Assembly: GCA_026770705.1 (NCBI GenBank)
Contig: JANJGN010000001.1
Location: forward strand, 100,254,001 to 100,318,000
Direction of reading: 5' to 3'
DNA: 64,000 nucleotides
DNA from: Isurus oxyrinchus
Lineage: Eukaryota
The translations under genes and the position numbers were made by a program. Shown here one piece after another: positions 25,638-41,570 of the stretch. The notes beneath the pieces were generated by a model. It did not search any database, was not told where the DNA came from, and saw only the letters and a program-made list of their open reading frames with translations. Each line of letters begins with the position of its first letter. Position 1 is the stretch's first letter.

Positions 25638-26827
25638 TGTGAGAATAGATTTAATTTTTTAATATTTTGGAGAATATTGTGTTATTCTGTAAAGAAGGCT
25701 TTGTGTGTGTTTGTGTATGTGGATTTAATTTCTGCTGACAGCTGTTTTTTAAAAATTCTTCACACAATCCTTGGATTACTGATGTATACTGGGCATTATT
25801 AGGTTTTAAGTTTCTAAATTTACAGATATGATTGGACATATTTATCTCTTGGGCTCTTGGCCAGAGCCACAATGGATTGTTTGTGTTTTTTTTAAACATG
25901 GATGATGATTTTCAGCTCCAAGTGAACCCAGTAGTTTTGAGAATTAAAGCACAGCAAAAAGACGTTACCTTTCAGAGACTGGGCCTTAACCATTCAGGCC
26001 TTTTGTTACCATTTGTTATCTTTCAAGGCAAAGTGTTTGACTGCGGGAGACATGGAAATCACCTCTAAACTGATGGCAAACGCTTTTGTCTCTGATGCAA
26101 ACCCACTATTTAAAACCCCCAAGCCTGAGAAATTGGAATTGATAAACAACTGGACATGCGGTACTATTTCAAGCATTCAAAGGGAAATTTACCCGACATT
26201 TAAGGGAATAAACAAATTCTAATTTTTCCAAAAAAAAAAGCTAATGGACAAACAGTCTGGATCGTTTCTCGGTATCAAAAATATTTTTTCAAAGTTGGTT
26301 TTTGGAAGAATAATTGAATAATAAATAAATTGGACACTAACAAAACCTGTCAGCCCAACAGCGCTGCTATTTGAATTTGGGATAATTCTAATATAAAATA
26401 AGTCAGGTCCAATCTAGTGCTTGTCCAACCTTTTTGCTTGTGAGGGTCCCATTTTAACATTTTTGGGAAGAAAAGGAATCAGCCTCAGAGGATTGGAAAT
26501 CTGCCCTTGTTTTTGCCTGCCACAAAGAGACAATGTCATGCCATGGTCCATCCCAGGCCTGATGCCCATCTGTCAGGCCATGAAGAGACCTCCCTCCCGC
26601 CACATGCTGTCTCAGGGCCCTGCCACATCTGCCTCGCAGGCCAGCCCTTGGACAAGCCTGATCCAGTGGGTTACTTTTGAGAAAATAAATTGTTGTTTAA
26701 GTGAAAGAACAAACAGACAAAGTGCCTGAAATCAAGTGGGAGTAATTAATTTCTGTTTTAAAGATATTACGAAAACATATTATTGGACTATAAAGTTTCT
26801 CCAGAGCTCCTGAAAGAGATACAATGG

Positions 26828-27223
26828 TGTGGGAATCTGCGGATTGCCACGGTCTCAGAATGATACTCATGGGTTAATATAGTATAATCTGTCTAATGTT
26901 TGCAAGCACCAAATGACCATGACTAACTTGAGAAAGAATGTAACAAACAAGATACTTCCTTTGTTCACACCATACTATAAAGGCTGGGAGCTTCCGGTCG
27001 AATTTGGACTTCACCTATGGACTGGGTTCGCGACCAGTGCCAAGGAACATGAGGATATCTCTCGATCAGCTGTTGCCACGGGGTCCCCCATGGGCAGAAG
27101 GACATGAGGTTATTGCTTGTAGTTGTGTAAATGTAATAAAGTAACATTTATAGTCAGTTGCCTCCTTTGATTCCACTAATATCTGTTAGATCCAAACAAA
27201 GCGTTATACTATATAACGTAACA
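26828..27223 (+). repeat. ERV 5' LTR (396 bp)
   Basis: tgtgggaatc...acgtaaca, with TATA-like tataaa at ~26976 and aataaa at ~27135. About 27 substitutions plus one 31-bp indel versus the 3' LTR (hand count). Confidence 0.95.
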
Positions 27224-27225
27224 TT

Positions 27226-27243
27226 TGGTGTAGTCGGCAGGAT
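27226..27243 (+). promoter_or_regulatory. Primer-binding site complementary to tRNA-Ser 3' end
   Basis: TGGTGTAGTCGGCAGGAT versus TGGCGTAGTCGGCAGGAT expected for vertebrate tRNA-Ser, 2 nt after the LTR. Confidence 0.88.
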
Positions 27244-27252
27244 CTGAGCGAT

Positions 27253-28075
27253 ATGTGGAAGAAAAAGTCAGATTCTAGTGTCCCTGAAGGTGATAGAATA
27301 TGTCAGGTGCCAGGATGGACTGCCTCAGATCATTTTGGGGTAGTAGCGAACGTGTTAGCTAAAGCTATGAGAATATGTTATTGGACTGTAAGTGTCTCCA
27401 GACAACCTGAACAAGATAAGATGGTAGCTATTGCATGTGTAAAATGGTATGAGGAAGTGAGACAGACAGAGAGAGAGAGAGTAAAGCAATTTGTCCAGGA
27501 GATGTGCAGGCAGCTTCACAGGCCAAGGCAGGCACCCTGGACTGATGTGACAGAGGCAGGTAACTATTTGTGAGAGATGGCGGTTCAAATAGGGATTTAT
27601 ACTGCAAACTTTCAGGGACAAGGTCATGAGCCATTTATAGCTGGTATGCGAAATTGATTAATGTGACATGGTCCTCCACATTTAAAAGGCGGTTTGTTGG
27701 CTTTGTTAGGTCCAGCACAAGGACAACCAGTGGGAACTGTGGTAATGTTGTTAGGACAGTTAAGGGGTGTCGAAGAAGGGCGAGCCAGAGCCAGAGTCAC
27801 AAATTGTGGAGACAGGAAACCGAGGGGAGATAAAAATGGGAATGGTGGTATTAGGAAGAATATAACCAGGCGAGCGATGTTTACAGCTCTCTTGAAGTCA
27901 GGGGTACCTAAAGAAGAAATAGGTGGTATCCCGACTGGGACTATGTTTGCATTATGGAAGAAACAGTGTGGGAGTAAAAGGGAGCCAAGTGCGCCTCTGG
28001 TGTGGGAAGCTGTGTCTGACCTAGAGAAACCAGATAAGTCACACAATAAAGGCAATCAGGGAGAGCCACCAAAGC
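27253..28075 (+). pseudogene. gag: ERV gag remnant (deleted, disrupted)
   Basis: ATG right after the PBS (ORF 27253-27573). C-terminal RRAMFTALLKSGVPKEEIGG...LWK motif typical of class III gag. Confidence 0.7.
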
Positions 28076-29846
28076 AAGGTATGGATGAATGGTATGCTGT
28101 GATTGATTTGGCCAATGCATTCTTCTCCATTTGCTTGGATGAAGAATCCCAGAATCAGTTTGCCTTCACATGGGATGGTAGGCAATATACTTATCAGAGA
28201 CTGCCCCAGGATTATCTACATCGTCCAACTCTGTGTCATGGCTTGTTAGCACGTGATTTGGAAAGGAATTAGCATCACCCACTATATTGATGATATCCGA
28301 GGACCAACTGAAGAGATAGTTGGGGAAGCTTTGGCTACATTGGTGCAACATATGAGAAAAAGAGGATAAAGGAGGAGGAGGAGAAAGCACTTCAGAAAAA
28401 GCAGGAAATCAAAGCTGAAATAGTAAAGCCTGTTCCACAAGAGAAAACCAGTCATAAAGAAGAGCTGCAGATAAAGGTAGATTCAAGCACCATGCAGTGG
28501 CACCAACAATTGCAGGATATTTGTGACCAATGTGCAGCATCGATTAATGATCTTAACAATGGCAAGGATTCCAAAGGTGGAGTGCCACCCCGGGAGGACA
28601 TTCTGAATGCAGAGTGAGCCTTGCTGCAAATGCAAGAACTGATGGCTGAGATACATGAGAAAATTGCTGCTGCAGCTGCCAAGATAAAGAGGACAAAGGA
28701 GGGACTAGCAGTACATATTTACAGTGACTTGTGGGCAGTAACCAATGGAATGGCAGTCTGGGATGCCAAACTGAAAGGATAATCAGTGAGTGATACATGG
28801 AAAACCCCTTTGGGGAAAAGATTGTGGGCTCAGATATGGGAAGAAGCTGACAAACAGTTGTATGTAAATCATGTGGACACCCACATGAAAAATACCACAT
28901 CCACCATGAACAATGCAAATGTTGATGAGATGGCAAGAGTTTGAGTAATTGAAGTTAAAGAAGGGGAAGTTAAGCAGTTTGCACAATGGGCTCATCAGAA
29001 ATCCAGACACCTAGGAGTGGCAGGAACCCGACAATGGGTAGTTAACCGAGGAATCCCAGTTACACATGATACCTCACAAATGGTAGTGTTGAATGCCCAA
29101 CATGCCAGAATGTGAAACAATTCCCACTACAGAAGAAACACTTAGGACAGATTAAAAAGGGGGGTGGGACAAGGGCAAATCTTGTAAATTGATTATACAG
29201 GGCCCTTACCCCTTTAGCAACAATATCAGTATGTACTTACAATGGTAGATACGTACTCAGGTCATATGGTCACCCATCCCACTGTAAAAGCAAACCAAGC
29301 TGTAACGATAAAAGGGTTAGATTATCTTGTGCAGATATATGGTGTCCCTAATGAGATACAATCAGATAATGGCTCACACTTTGTTGGGCAAGAAGTCGGG
29401 TAATGGGCAATGGACAATGGGATTTTGTGGGTGAACCATATACCACATTATCCACAGGCCTCAGGATTATTTGAATGAATGAATGAATGGGCTCTTGAAG
29501 CAACAAATCAAATTGCTCAGCCCCAACCACTCTAAAGGGATGGTTGAAAGTATTAGCTCAAGCAGAATACAATCTTAACAATCGGCCTAGGCCTGGGGGT
29601 ACTCCAATTGAATGGATGATGGGGCGGAACCGAGTCCCTCACCAACAACTAAAGTCCACTGAACAAAACGTATGTAAAGGTGGAAAAGTATGGGTGCATT
29701 ACCCTAATAAGAAACTGGTACAAGGAGAAGTGTTGGTACAAGGAGAAGTGTTGGCACATGGGGAAGGTAATACCTATTGGGTGTTACTTGAGAGTGAAGA
29801 TATACCAATCTTTTTAAATACTGATAAACTGAGGAAAAGAAACTGA
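28076..29846 (+). pseudogene. pol: ERV pol remnant (partial RT, RNase H C-terminal half, integrase), interrupted by a GLE1-derived insert
   Basis: WYAVIDLANAFFSI, RLPQDYLH, HYIDDI; VHIYSDLWAVTNG; HQKSRHLG...C..C, IDYTGPLP, VDTYSG, QSDNGSHF, HIPHYPQASG. Protease and the RT N-terminus are absent. Confidence 0.92.
28359..28702 (+). pseudogene. GLE1: Retrovirally captured, intronless, circularly permuted fragment of GLE1 (mRNA export factor)
   Basis: Reads KRIKEEEEK...EELQIKVDSSTMQWHQQLQDICDQCAASINDLNNGKDSK|GGVPPREDILNAE*ALLQMQELMAEIHEKIAAAAAKIKR. It matches human GLE1 [25 protein letters not shown]...NSKDSQ and, after the junction, the normally upstream [23 protein letters not shown]...EDKRR (human sequence recalled from memory). 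Confidence 0.85.
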
Positions 29847-29849
29847 AAT

Positions 29850-30600
29850 GGTAAATAAGAGCAGTTATTACATTATGTCATTACAGGTGAAGGCAACGTG
29901 GTTACTTCTGTTATACCTCTGATGGATGGACATGGGACCTTATTTTTGTTCTAACACATTGCAATTTGATGGAATTGTATGAGATAGCCTAACGGAATGA
30001 ATTGAAACTTACTCTATATACCGGACATTATAATGCATGAATGAAGCTGTTAAATTTGACTAATACTAATTTGACTATAAACCCAGATCTGAAACGTACA
30101 GAATGTAATGATACTGCATGCAATGTAACATTTACAATTCTAAATGGAACTCGTAAAGATATATGGTGTAAATTTATTACATTACCACATTTATTTGGAG
30201 CTAAGTTTTGGCTCTCTATTCTATGGAACATGGTTGGATGAATATAATAAGACCCGTGTTGGGGAGGATTGTGAGTATTGGCCTGAAGGATTGGTATGTC
30301 CTTATCATACCCCCATGTTTGAGCCAAATACCATGTGAGCTTTGGGAGGAACATGTAAATGAAGGAAGTTACCTGTAAATAATACACAAATCAGGGATTA
30401 GTTCATATTACGGATGAATTACATACCTTAACTACCCATGATTGGTGGGACATTTTCAGCGGATGTTCTCCCAAAGCCTCTATGATCCTTACCTTAATTA
30501 TGCATCCAATTGTGATTTTACTAATCATATTCTGTATTGCATTTTTGGTTTTAATTGATATTGCTATGTAAATTATATACATTGTATCATAAGGTAATGG
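29850..30600 (+). pseudogene. env: ERV env remnant (N-glycosylated SU piece and TM anchor, large internal deletion)
   Basis: Splice-acceptor-like cattacag at ~29886, then a hydrophobic start. Sequons NLT/NLT/NDT/NVT/NGT (30041-30150). HDWWDIFSGCSPKASMILTLIMHPIVILLIIFCIAFLVLI at 30437-30560. Confidence 0.75.
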
Positions 30601-30666
30601 CTATTGAGCAATTAATTTGTGCGTATACTCGTTTGCTTGATAACCCCTGAATATCAGGAGGTGGAA

Positions 30667-31031
30667 TGTGGGAATCTGCAGATTGCCACGGTCTCAGAAT
30701 GGTACTCATGGGTTAATATAGTATAATCTGTCTAATGCTTGCAAGCACCAAATGGCCATGACTAACTCAAGAAAGAATGTAGCAAACAAGATAATTCCTT
30801 TGGTTACACTATACTATGAAGGCTGGGAGCTTCTGGTCGAATTCGGACTTCACCTATGGACTGGGTTCGCGACCGGTGCCAAGGAACATGAGCATACCTC
30901 TCGATCAGCTGTCGCCACGATTGCTTGTAGTTGTGTAAATGTAATAAAGCAACATTTATAATCAGTTGTCTCCTTTGATTCCACTAATATCTGTTAGATC
31001 CGAACAAAGCATTACGCTGTATAACGCAACA
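30667..31031 (+). repeat. ERV 3' LTR (365 bp), preceded by purine-rich PPT (aggaggtggaa)
   Basis: Direct repeat of 26828-27223, followed by the TSD copy aatag. Confidence 0.95.
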
Positions 31032-31064
31032 AATAGTAATTAAGGAGGTGCCCCACTCAGAATA

Positions 31065-32787: not shown

Positions 32788-32790
32788 CCA

Positions 32791-33027
32791 CCTCGGGGAT
32801 TCGCAGCCTAGTTCCAGGGAGCAGAGTCGGAGGACAGAGTTCCAGAGAGGTGAGTATAAAAACCTTACCTCGGGGATTCATGGCCTAGTTTGAGGGAGCA
32901 GAGTCGGAGGGCGGAGTTCCAGAGAGGTGAGTATAAAAACCTTACGCCAGGGATTCGCAGCCTAGTTCCAGGGAGCAGAGTTGGAGGGCGGAGTTCCAGA
33001 GAGATGAGTATAAAAACCTTACCTCAG
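32791..33027 (+). repeat. 77-bp tandem repeat (3 units) in the CR1 5'UTR
   Basis: Units start at 32791, 32868 and 32945, with a partial unit at 33022. Confidence 0.9.
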
Positions 33028-35512
33028 GTCTTTTAAAAACAAAATTAAAAGTGGCATCACAGTAAATCTGTTATCTGATTGGCTGGTAGAGATTCTACAC
33101 TAAATTTGAAACTAAAACTTTGTTCAACTAATTAAACCAAATAAATTAATCACTTAATTAATAAGTAGAGGGTATCTAGACCAGAATCAGGTGATTACTG
33201 TTCTTAGAATTTAGCATTTATAGTAGAAATCTAGCCCTAGGGAACGTATAGTTAATAAGGAGTCAATAGGCAGTTATTAGATTTAAATTAATTTACTAAA
33301 TAGTTCTATAAATGGCAGTTGCTGGGGTGAAGTGCTTCACCTGTGGGATTTGGGAAATCTGTGACGCTTCAAGTGTCCCAGACAACTACACCTGCAGCAA
33401 GTGTACTCAATTGCAGCTCCTCTCAGACCGCATGGATCGGTTGGAGCAGCAGTTGGATGCACTTAGGAGCATTCAGGTGGCAGAAAGCGTCATTGACAGG
33501 AGTTTTACAGACGTGGTCACACCCAAGGTACAGACAGATAGATGGGTGACCGCTAGAAGAGGCAGGCAGTCAGTGCAGAAATCCCCTGTGGCTGTCCCCC
33601 TAACAGGTATACCATTATGGATACTGTTGGGGAATGGCCTATCAGGGGAAAACAACAGCAGTAGCCAGAGCAGTGGCACCACGGCTGTCTCTGTTGTTCA
33701 GCAGGGGTGGGGTCAAAGCACAGAAGAGCAATTGTCATAGGGGACTCTATAGTCAGGGGCTCAGATAGGCGCTTCTGTGGTCGTGAAAGAGACACCAGGA
33801 TGGTATGTTGCCTCCCTGGTGCCAGGGTCTAGGATGTCTCTGATCGGGTACAGGACATTCTGAAGGGGGAGGGAGAACAGCCAGGGGTTGTGGTACACGT
33901 TGGTACTAACGACACAGGCAGGAAGAGTGATGAGGTCCTGCAGCAGGAGTTCAGGGAGTTAGGCAGAAAGTTAAAAAACAGGACCTCTAGGGTTGTAATC
34001 TCAGGATTACTCGCTGTGCCACATGCCAGTGAGGCTAGAAATAGGAAGATAGTGCAGCTGAACACATGGCTGAACAGATGGTGTAGGAGGGAGGGTTTCT
34101 GATATCTGGATCATTGGGATCTCTTCTGGGGCAGGTGGGACCTGGACGAGAAGGATGGGTTGCATCTAAACTGGAGGGGCACCAATATCCTAGCTGCGAG
34201 GTTTGCTAGTGTCACTCGGGAGGGTTTAAACTAGTATGGCAGGGGGGTGGGAACCAGAGCAATAGGTCAGCAGGTGAAATAAAGGACTGGGTACCGGTGA
34301 ATATGGCCAGTAGGACTAAGAGGAAGGGCAGGCAGGGAGAAATTACTGAACACAGTGGGACTGAGGGTCTGAAATGCATTTGTTTCAATGCAAGAAGTAT
34401 AACAGGCAAGGCAGGTGAGCTTAGAGCTTGGATTAGTACTTGGGACAATGATGTTATTACTATTACAGAGACTTGGTTGAAGGATGGACAGGATTGGCAG
34501 GTAAAAGTTCCAGGATTTAGATGTTTCAGGCAGGATAGAGTGGGATGTAGAAGAGGTGGGGGAGTTGCACTGCTGGTTAAGGGGAATATCACAGCTGTAC
34601 GACAGGAGGACACCTCGGTGGGCTCATGCAGCGAGGCAATATGGGTAGAGCTCTGGAATAGGAAGGGTGCAGTCGCAATGTTGGGGGTTTACTATAGGCC
34701 TCCCAATTGCCGGCGGGAGATTGAGGAACAGTTATGTAGGCAGATTTTGGAAAGATGTAAAAGCAATAGGGTTGTTGTGGTGGGTGATTTTAACTTTCCC
34801 GATATTGACTGGGAATCACTTAGTACTAGGGGTTTGGATGGTGCAGAATTTGTAAGGTGCATCCAGGAGGGCTTCCTGAGACAATATGAAGATAGTTCAA
34901 CTAGGGAAGGGGAAATACTAGACCTGGTATTAGGGAATGAACCCGGCCAGGTGGTCGAAGTTTCAGTAGGAGAGCATTTCGGGAAAAAGTGACCATAATT
35001 CAGTAAGTTTCAAGATACTGGTGGATAAGGATAACAGGAGTCCTCCGGTTAAGATGCTTAATTGGGGGAAGGCTAATTATAACAATATTAGGCAGGAACT
35101 GAGGAATCTAGACTGGAGGCGGATGCTTGAGGGCAAATCAACAACTGACATGTGGGGGGGCTTTCAAACGTCAGTTGATAAGAATTCAGGACCGGCATGT
35201 TCCTGCTAGGATGAAGGATAAGCATGGCAGGTTTCAGGAACCTTGGATAATGAAGGATATTGTGAGATTAGTCAGAAAGAAAAGGGAAGCATTTGAAAGG
35301 GCTAGAAGGCTGGGAAGAGATGAAGCCCATGGAGAATACAAAGAAAGCAGGAAGAAACTTAAGCAAGGTGTCAGGAGGGCTAAAAGGGGTCATGAAAAGT
35401 CACTGGCAACCAGGATTAAGGAAAATCCCAAGGCCTTTTATACATATGTAAATAGCAAGAGGGTAGCCAGGGAAAGGGTAGGCCACTCAGGGACAGAGCT
35501 GGGAATCTGTGT

Positions 35513-37171
35513 GTGGAGCCAGAAGAAACGAGAGAGATACTGAATGAATACTTCTCATCAGTATTCAGCAAAGAGGACTTAGCGGTCGATTTGTCTAGGG
35601 AAGAGTGTGTAGATAGCCTGGATCATGTTGAGATCAAAAAAGAGGAGGTGTTAGGTGTCTTGAAGAATATTAAGGTGGATAAATCCCCAGGGCCAGATGG
35701 GATCTACCCCAGACTACTGAGAGAGGCAAGGGAGAAGATTGCTGGGGCCTTGACAGAAATCTTTGTATCCTCACTGGCCACGGGTGAGGTCCCAGAGGAC
35801 TGGAGAATGGCCAATGTTGTTCCATTGTTTAAGAAGGGTGGCAGGGATAATCCAGGAAATTATAGGCCAGCGAGCCTTAAGTCAGTGGTAGGGAAATTAT
35901 TGGAGAAGATTCTTCGTGACAGGATTTACTACCATTTGGAAGCAAATGGGCATATTAGTGAGAGGCAGCATGGTTTTGTGAAGGGGAGGTCGTGTCTCAC
36001 TAACTTGATCAAGTTTCTCGAGGAAGTGACAAAGATGATTGACGATGGAAGGGCAGTGGATGTTATGTACATGGATTTCAGTAAGGCCTTTGACAACGTC
36101 CCTCATGGCAGACTGGTACAGAAGGTAAAGTTGCACGGGATCAGAGGTGAGCTGGCAGGATGGATACAGAATTGGCTTGGTCATAGAAGACAGAGGGTAG
36201 CAGTGGAAGGGTGCTTTTCTGAATGGAGAGCTGTGACTAGTGGAGTTCCGCAGGGATCAGTGCTGGGACCTTTGCTGTTTGTCGTATACATAAATGATTT
36301 GGAGGAAAATGTAACTGGACTAATTAGTAAGTTTGCAGACGACACTAAGGTTGGAGGAGTTGCAGATAGTGAAGAGGATTGTCAAAGGATACAACGGGAT
36401 ATAGATTGGTTGGAGACTTGGGTGGAGAAATGGCAGATGGAGTTTAATCCAGACAAATGTGGGATAAAGCATTTTGGAAGGTCTAATACAGGCAGGAATT
36501 ATACAGTAAATGGAAGAACCCTTAAGTGCATCGATGGGCAGAGGGATCTGGGTGTACAGGTCCACGGGTCACTGAAAGTGGCAACACAGGTGGATAAGGT
36601 AGTCAGGAAGGCAAATGGCATGCTTGCCTTCATTGGCAGGGGTATTGAGTATAAAAGCTGGGAAGTCATGCTGCAGCTGTATAGAACCTTGGTTAGGCCA
36701 CACTTGGAATATTGCGTGCAATTCTGGTCACCACATTACCAGAAGGATATGGAGGCGTTGGAGAGGGTGCAGAGGAGTTTTACCAGGATGCTGCCTGGTC
36801 TGGAGGTTATTAGCTATGAGGAGAGGTTGGAGAAACTCAGATTGTTCTCACTAGAGCAACAGAGATTGAGGGGTGACTTGATAGAAGTTTACAAAATTAT
36901 GAGTGGCATGGACAGAGTAGATAGTCAGAAGCTTTTTCCCAGGGTGGAAAAGTCAATTACTAGGGGACATAGATTTAAGGTGAGAGGAGAAAACTATAGA
37001 GGAGATGTGCAGGGCAAGTTTTTTACACAGAGGGTAGTGAGTGTCTGGAATTCGCTGCCAGAGGAGGTGGTGGAAGCTGATACGATAGTGATGTTTAAGA
37101 GGCAGCTTGACAAATACATGAATAGGATGGGAATAGAGGGATATGAACCTCAGAAGTGCAAAATGTTTTAG
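35513..37171 (+). pseudogene. CR1 ORF2 reverse-transcriptase segment (open 552 aa; upstream frameshifts separate it from the endonuclease)
   Basis: ORF track; complete set of RT motifs. Confidence 0.9.
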
Positions 37172-40757: not shown

Positions 40758-41570
40758 AAAAAGAAAGCCTTGCATTTATACAACATTTTTTATGACCATC
40801 GGACATCTCAAGCATTTTACAGCCAATAAAGTACTTTTGAAGCACAGTCACTGTTGTAATTTGGGAAATTTGGCATCTAATTTGCACAGAGCAAATTCTT
40901 ACAAACAGCAAAGTGATAATGAGCAGATAATCTGCTTTTCTGTGATGTTGATTGAGGTATAAATATTGACCAGGGCACCAATTTCTTCCTCTATTATTCT
41001 TCAAAATATCGTGGAATCTTTGACATCCACTTGGGCAAGTAAATCAAGTAGATGGGGCCCCAATATACTATCTCATCCAAAAGTTCCCAAGTAGATGGGG
41101 CCCCAATATACTATCTCATCCAAAAGTTCCCAAGTAGATGGGGCCCCAATATACTATCTCATCCAAAAGTTCCCAAGTAGATGGGGCCCCAATATACTAT
41201 CTCATCCAAAAGTTCCCAAGTAGATGGGGCCCCAATATACTATCTCATCCAAAAGTTCCCAAGTAGATGGGGCCCCAATATATCTCATCCAAAAGTTCCC
41301 AAGTAGATGGGGCCCCAATATACTATCTCATCCTAAAGGCAGCACCTGTGACACTGCAACACGGGAGCATCTCCCTCGATTTTGCTCTCAAGTCCTGAAG
41401 TTGGATTTGGACATGGAACCTTGTGATTCAGAGACAAGTGTGTAACCAACTCAATCACAGCTGATAAAGGCAAAATACTGCGGATGCTGGAACTCTGAAA
41501 CAAATACAAAAAATGCTGGAAAAACTCAGCAGGTCTGACAACATCTGTCTTTCTCAGTCACAGCTGACAC
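40758..41570 (-). mobile_element. DeuSINE/SacSINE1-like SINE containing a minisatellite and a small PLE insertion
   Basis: tttacagccaat..agtacttttgaag..agtcactgttgtaat...cagataatctg block, also seen at 46070-46460. PLE piece 41465-41557 is flanked by tcacagctga. Confidence 0.65.
41045..41338. repeat. 43-bp minisatellite, ~6.9 nearly identical copies
   Basis: Unit caagtagatggggccccaatatactatctcatccaaaagttcc at 41045, 41088, 41131, 41174, 41217, 41260 (3-nt deletion) and 41300. Confidence 0.95.

Follow-up and report, generated by a model that had tools for sequence, protein, structure and literature searches.

The window, the whole 64,000-nucleotide stretch of DNA from Isurus oxyrinchus that was analysed, contains a decayed provirus of 4.2 kb, in whose pol region an insert made of exons of the host gene GLE1 is found. 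The parts of the provirus outside this insert are the following.

26823..26827, + strand, 5' target-site duplication of 5 bp, matching the 3' copy at 4/5 positions
26828..27223, + strand, 5' LTR (TG...CA)
27226..27243, + strand, primer-binding site, complementary to the 3' end of host tRNA-Ser(AGA)
27244..28353, + strand, decayed gag/pro/RT remnant with internal deletions, the RT fragment lying at about 28070-28353
28703..29830, + strand, remnants of C-terminal RNase H and of integrase, interrupted by stops and frameshifts
29850..30650, + strand, probable env remnant, on a weak GP41 match (E 0.02, below cut-off) that an insert-free copy gives in the corresponding stretch
30656..30666, + strand, polypurine tract, directly 5' of the 3' LTR
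30667..31031, + strand, 3' LTR, differing from the 5' LTR at 27 of 365 sites and by one gap of 31 nt
31032..31036, + strand, 3' target-site duplication, pairing with 26823..26827

Of the features by which an endogenous retrovirus is recognized, LTRs, primer-binding site (PBS), polypurine tract (PPT), target-site duplications, RT, RNase H and integrase are found. Integrase was detected with rve (E 4e-8 at 29221-29400) and RNase H with RNase_H (E 7e-14) in an insert-free copy spanning the 3' junction region, and the RT fragment matched RVT_1 at E 2e-4, below the cut-off; gag was assigned by position alone, and the internal deletions by comparison with insert-free copies. The best solved-structure matches were gammaretroviral RTs (E 5e-12), followed by Ty3 and foamy virus. 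The tRNA of the primer site was called Ser-AGA in four of four tRNA genes, a fifth, decayed copy being called Phe. The target-site duplication measures 5 bp in each of the three copies read, and this length, together with the RT motifs, presumably points to a Class III / ERV-L-like affinity.

Between the RT and RNase H remnants lies the insert (28354-28702), in which the end of exon A, exon B and the start of exon A follow one another, amounting to one 327-nt lap of an A+B circle plus 22 nt.

28354..28462, + strand, 3' part of GLE1 exon A (circle 106-214)
28463..28575, + strand, complete GLE1 exon B (113 nt), with a normal splice to A at 28462/28463
28575..28576, + strand, back-splice-type join of the exon B end to the upstream exon A start, common to all six copies
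28576..28702, + strand, 5' part of GLE1 exon A (circle 1-127)

When the rotated A+B circle was compared with 28359-28702, 319 of 344 bases were identical in a gap-free alignment. The insert holds the exons of the circle only, and is free of introns and poly(A). The original prediction, which took the locus for a retrovirus carrying one turn of a GLE1 circular RNA, had described a pair of 17-mers, a 327-nt period, flanking RT and RNase H peptides and GLE1 halves in swapped order, all of which are present where it had placed them; an overlap beyond one lap is present as well, although its length is 22 nt and not 17, and the insert starts at 28354 and not at 28359. This terminal repeat (28354-28375 and 28681-28702) is composed of 14 nt shared with the virus, 2 nt found in the circle only and 6 nt again shared with the virus; the portion surely copied twice is 10 nt and the maximum 22 nt. 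An intronless reading frame had also been claimed, and the insert is indeed intron-free, but the window copy carries a stop codon at 28615-28617 and does not match the frame of pol at its 5' end. At the 3' junction (window 28697-28780) the GLE1 frame continues in frame into the RNase H remnant, the 5' junction being out of frame with RT. No Pfam match was obtained with the insert peptide, because it falls outside PF07817. The stretch across the back-splice join (window 28570-28584) resembles the family's polypurine tract and LTR edge.

Alignment of the insert to its host locus places GLE1 on the minus strand of C8, where the two exons are as follows.

C8:148404450-148404237, minus strand, host exon A, 214 nt, AG before and GT after
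C8:148402867-148402755, minus strand, host exon B, 113 nt, AG before and GT after

As had been predicted, 28575 falls on the end of an exon followed by GT and 28576 on the start of an upstream exon preceded by AG, and the two exons, separated in the host by an intron of 1369 nt, sum to the 327 nt of the insert period (214+113). The assignment to GLE1, also part of the prediction, was borne out: over 71 aa the peptide of exon A shows 100% identity to a protein bearing the name GLE1, for which 12 exons could be placed in order along 30 kb of the host locus, and PF07817 exons are found 4-9 kb downstream, on the same strand as exons A and B. The A+B unit corresponds to GLE1 residues 298-406, with phase 0 at both circle ends, and comprises in the host 109 codons without a stop. 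The host A+B circle (C8:148404450-148402755) contains three internal methionines, and an endless round of translation would be possible on it.

A reversed exon order might also be read from an ordinary mRNA if exons A-B had been tandemly duplicated in the genome at the time of capture, the duplication having since been lost or never fixed. Such a 327-nt duplication would stay in frame, and as the insert copies differ by 5.6-8.1% from the present host gene, the donor allele is an old one that can no longer be observed directly. Nevertheless, each exon is found once in 30 kb of the host locus, and the genome search concurs: exon B gave seven matches (one in the gene, six in proviral copies), the exon that precedes A a single one, and 28359-28702 nine in the 4.98-Gb assembly, six of them at proviral places including the window and three as separate pieces on C8, all copy numbers from genome searches being lower bounds. 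Contigs from two organisms each pass through A and B once, and in three of the four sequencing runs a single assembled contig bridges the linear joins at exactly these exon limits. Moreover, the cartilaginous-fish GLE1 proteins compared (13 of 29 were used) align over the A+B unit in 13/13 cases and are repeat-free, the 109 aa being 100% and 99% identical to basking and white shark GLE1 (as named) and 77-93% to 11 other cartilaginous fishes, which marks the host as a lamniform shark. A genomic duplication of the exons does not explain the reversed order, and one that existed only around the time of capture is very unlikely. The original prediction had named the lack of a GLE1 hit, a join away from exon ends and a tandem duplication as findings that would speak against it; a GLE1 hit was found, the joins lie on splice sites and no tandem duplication was seen. 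The search with the window peptide gave no match among proteins of 46-149 aa, and among longer proteins returned canonical GLE1 only (24 hits among 141 candidates); therefore, no annotated chimera was found elsewhere.

As regards the parental RNA, the assembled contigs of the four runs contain the linear joins and no B-to-A join among 15 listed out of 46 joints, but contigs drop rare variants, so that this speaks neither for nor against the circle. In run X10, a contig of 231 nt (L049:5738-5953) has its start 2 nt upstream of exon A, which may mark a fork at the exon A acceptor, where spliced, unspliced and back-spliced predecessors would diverge. An 18-nt junction pattern, with 2 mismatches allowed, gave 256 matches compared with 201 in the control, which is not above control, and it was left out of copy counting; its sole exact match is the second C1 copy. 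Many of the 2-mismatch hits fall in a clustered repeat array at C5:66917734-66963142.

The viral side of the recombination could be read from insert-free relatives. Searches with the two viral flanks gave 13 and 15 matches, and in a BLAST of the circle the loci of insert-free copies proved devoid of GLE1 sequence. The two flanks are separated by 938-1320 nt of pol in five of the six insert-free copies measured, and the insert substitutes for about 1 kb of pol instead of merely interrupting it. The two switch points are located as follows.

28354..28367, + strand, 5' switch point, 13/14 nt common to the insert-free virus and circle 106-119
28697..28702, + strand, 3' switch point, 5-6 nt common to the insert-free virus and circle 122-127

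At the 5' junction, all seven insert-free copies read (7/7) resemble circle 106-119 with the viral base at the mismatch, 13/14 nt being the typical copy, and the circle base stands at that position in the four insert copies with an intact 5' end (4/4). At the 3' junction, the 5 nt of circle 123-127 recur in six of six insert-free copies read, and the shared length is 6 nt in at least four. In 46% of 1000 shuffles, circle and virus have a 14-mer in common somewhere if one mismatch is tolerated, and the match at the junction is the one present in 3/3 copies scanned; its weight lies in the junction's use of the match, not in its existence. Furthermore, both switch points are held in a 34-mer which is the richest in purine within the circle (33/34), and whose 5' edge coincides with the 5' end of the insert. 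The proposal that RT had switched its template onto GLE1 and back finds support in the microhomology that insert-free relatives show at both ends of the insert.

These junctions also bear on whether a circRNA pseudogene made by a LINE could have landed in a resident provirus, which then spread. LINE RT of what we take to be the CR1 type is abundant in the window; nevertheless, the insert is surrounded neither by a target duplication nor by a poly(A) tail, the marks of LINE-type processed pseudogenes, and the replacement of about 1 kb of virus with homology at both ends is the LTR-element template-switch pattern of Tan et al., as given in the available part of PMC5131818. Such an origin is exceedingly unlikely. 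As for the reversed join itself, it might be the work of RT changing template a third time, from one linear GLE1 mRNA to another, given that 3 nt of splice-consensus bases are common to the exon ends at the join and that false back-splice joins made by RT are described in the part of bioRxiv 10.1101/259556 that was available. However, this would require two mRNA molecules and three jumps, and in a 1431-nt spliced stretch of linear GLE1 only 33 of the 638,946 possible backward joins hit two exon boundaries, or 15 of 11,909 when at least 3 nt of homology, the length at the observed join, are demanded. The probability of a join made in this way is minimal.

A linear GLE1 RNA of the order A-B-A-B, arising from trans-splicing of two pre-mRNAs and captured in part by the virus, would yield an identical exon-exact join and 349-nt substring, and from the sequence alone a circle would not be distinguished from such a repeat RNA. 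In this respect, the co-packaged, back-spliced circRNA originally proposed keeps its exon-exact reversed join and its single gene of origin, but loses its exclusiveness. Exons A+B are enclosed exactly by an inverted repeat with one arm in each flanking intron (91 nt, 77%, the longest in 9.5 kb of the host gene); it is consistent with circle formation, weakly and not decisively, because its arms match at only 70-77% and, of 36 intron pairs, 4 others have higher scores, and pairing of the arms is conceivable both inside a molecule and between two. Against trans-splicing, exon-exact reversed joins come mostly from circles, the insert contains no neighbouring exon, although a full-length repeat RNA could easily supply one, and both switch points are located inside one 22-nt stretch of the unit, as a closed loop predicts. 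A trans-spliced template is thus considered quite improbable.

The reading preferred here, which is very probable, is that a back-spliced circGLE1 served the viral reverse transcriptase as an interim template, which it entered by a switch, copied round and left by a second switch. We infer that the template was circular and co-packaged, a two-exon GLE1 circular RNA (327 nt) being present inside the particle of an ancient shark retrovirus, and the direction of the switches would be that of standard retroviral replication. During minus-strand synthesis, RT would leave the viral RNA inside the RNase H coding region, land on the circle via the 5-6 nt of shared sequence at the 3' junction, cross the back-splice join, go once round and exit at the 5' junction on the second pass, returning to the viral RNA about 1 kb upstream by means of the 13-of-14-nt match. 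The product would thereby lose the RT thumb, the connection and half of RNase H and become non-autonomous, while the LTRs, PBS and PPT, being kept, would allow it to be copied in trans to at least five germ-line sites, with neutral decay of the copies since that spread. The single lap may have been caused by RNase H nicking the circle, perhaps at the purine-tract edge, or several laps may have collapsed into one afterwards, since retroviruses often lose direct repeats from their genomes. According to the available part of PMC9550094, RNase H-intact RTs on a 42-nt RNA circle reached under about 150 nt and reduced-RNase H enzymes 300-1000 nt, and therefore one lap is not a strict limit.

The recombinant is present at five loci plus one local duplicate, which is a lower bound. 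The window, C6 and C16 copies hold both junctions, and each has two LTRs and its own 5-bp target-site duplications; the C17 and second C1 copies have one full LTR each in the stretch examined. In the second C1 copy the 5' junction is present and the insert is joined to the 3' LTR 9 nt past the reversed join (C1:138521978; L016:4979), apparently by a later deletion through the likeness between the join and the PPT-LTR edge. The 3' junction is found, together with a secondary 86-nt deletion, in two neighbouring C17 pieces, one of them being the local duplicate; the latter, of about 680 nt with insert and flanks, is situated just outside the C17 provirus (C17:82168188-82168863; L015:3189-3864). 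Five insert copies share a further deletion of at least 358 nt in pro/RT, from which six insert-free copies are free, and the insert family had one origin and spread later. An apparent shared gag deletion relative to the C2 copy was rejected, another repeat having been inserted in C2. The private changes in the insert comprise 8 synonymous and 35 non-synonymous ones, 32% synonymous being expected for random transitions, and the insert is therefore without coding constraint and in neutral decay. In view of this decay and of the stop codon, a functional GLE1-RNase H fusion was rejected.

The age of the family was approached through the divergence of its LTR pairs. K2P values are 0.079, 0.127 and 0.121 for three of the insert copies and 0.106 for one copy that is insert-free; outside CpG sites, the divergence is 0.054-0.092. 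At 2.2e-10 per site per year, the rate assumed for sharks in the available part of PMC4422223, the non-CpG divergence corresponds roughly to 120-210 million years; when the mutation rate of 7e-10 per generation, measured according to the accessible part of PMC10587355, is taken as a yearly ceiling, a rough 40-65 million years is obtained. The insert family is probably 40-200 million years old. No lamniform divergence date is contained in the available part of PMC11886822. There are six sites at which every covering copy, or every one except a single copy, departs from the present gene, in five cases synonymously, as expected of host changes that followed the capture. The second organism in the read data, whose introns are about 1.2% apart from those of the host (22/1838), agrees with the copies at one of the six sites and, as far as the listed contig pieces go, with the host at the remaining ones. 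In addition, at codon 6 no change from the host residue is common to two copies, and the residue differs in 11/11 non-lamniforms; at codon 24, 5/5 copies have the residue of 8/11 non-lamniforms, unlike basking and white shark. Therefore, the capture is bracketed inside the lamniform lineage, before the basking/white shark split, each bound resting on one site, the second of which is labile.

The nearest precedent of the shark insert is that of the mouse circRFWD2 pseudogenes, 33 copies with MMERVK10C-int flanks for which the mechanism was stated as unknown (PMC4897178). Like the circRNA-derived pseudogenes of that work, the insert has a reversed exon join at splice sites, circle exons only, no poly(A) and no duplication that would explain it, and, as in circRFWD2, multiple copies with ERV internal sequence in their flanks. 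The rare germline record announced in the original prediction must be qualified accordingly: its sequence pattern was confirmed, but ERV-flanked circRNA pseudogenes were already known in mouse, and a multi-copy family is present here. In contrast with the mouse, rat and primate cases of PMC4897178, whose switch points are unmapped, both junctions are resolved against insert-free relatives in a shark host, and pol contains a copy of the whole lap together with an overlap.

On the retroviral side, the available part of PMC5131818 describes LTR-mediated retrocopies in which RT switches template on short homology and replaces internal sequence of LTR elements. The shark insert resembles them, as far as that part of the source goes, in that internal ORFs are partly replaced, both LTRs are kept and further rounds of non-autonomous copying occurred, and the microsimilarity at the junctions, with a median of 6 bp in that source, is 13/14 and 5-6 nt here. 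The donors there are linear mRNAs, and the text available contains neither 'circ' nor 'back-splic', whereas the exon order of the shark insert is reversed. Judged by the sequence features tested, the insert would qualify both as a circRNA-derived pseudogene and as an LTR-mediated retrocopy. Gene transduction by defective, helper-dependent retroviruses likewise replaces viral coding sequence by host sequence, and its spread needs a helper; unlike such transduction, the shark insert gives no sign of an expressed or selected fusion, being out of frame with pol at its 5' end, interrupted by stops and in neutral decay.

Packaging of host circRNAs by HIV-1 and MLV particles is reported in the available part of bioRxiv 10.64898/2026.01.21.700838, where human circGLE1 is one of the 14 circles detected in HIV-1 virions, minimally packaged and not among the Sanger-checked junctions. 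That part of the source deals with co-packaging only, with no capture by a provirus, and does not give the exons of human circGLE1.

What is new in the shark case is that both switch points are resolved against the parent virus, together with the complete lap, the shark host and the greater age; in the open full-text literature no published shark case, or full lap inside pol, was found, which is not proof of absence. The route by which circRNAs return into genomes was left open in PMC4897178, and the shark family lets it be read directly, since both switch points are kept and insert-free relatives exist in the same genome. Moreover, it supplies a fossil date for a back-splice event, beyond the reach of RNA sequencing, and a recipe for further searches, namely for reversed exon joins inside LTR elements of slow-evolving genomes. 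A wider reading is possible, though doubtful, in which the family would be a Mesozoic, base-resolved germ-line record of retroviral rolling-circle reverse transcription, with RNase H opening the circle at the purine-tract edge and forcing the exit after one lap, and in which the GLE1 back-splice would be conserved between shark and human and be that of the circGLE1 of HIV-1 virions. If this were true, the circRNA isoform would predate the shark-mammal split and would have been taken up repeatedly by retroviruses.

Some further repeats were observed in and around the family. The insert-free copies include at least two types (L052, L055 and L056 against L050 and L051), about 450 nt apart in pro/RT, and a repeat of about 680 nt is present at different places in or near several proviral copies (L051 and others). 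In the window, 1.8 kb downstream of the provirus, a near-complete LINE, presumably CR1-type, occupies 32790-37171; its 5' end carries three tandem units of 77 nt, and its RT frame is open over 571 codons. Elsewhere in the window, about seven 43-nt tandem units, with 97% matches, are found at 41045-41338.
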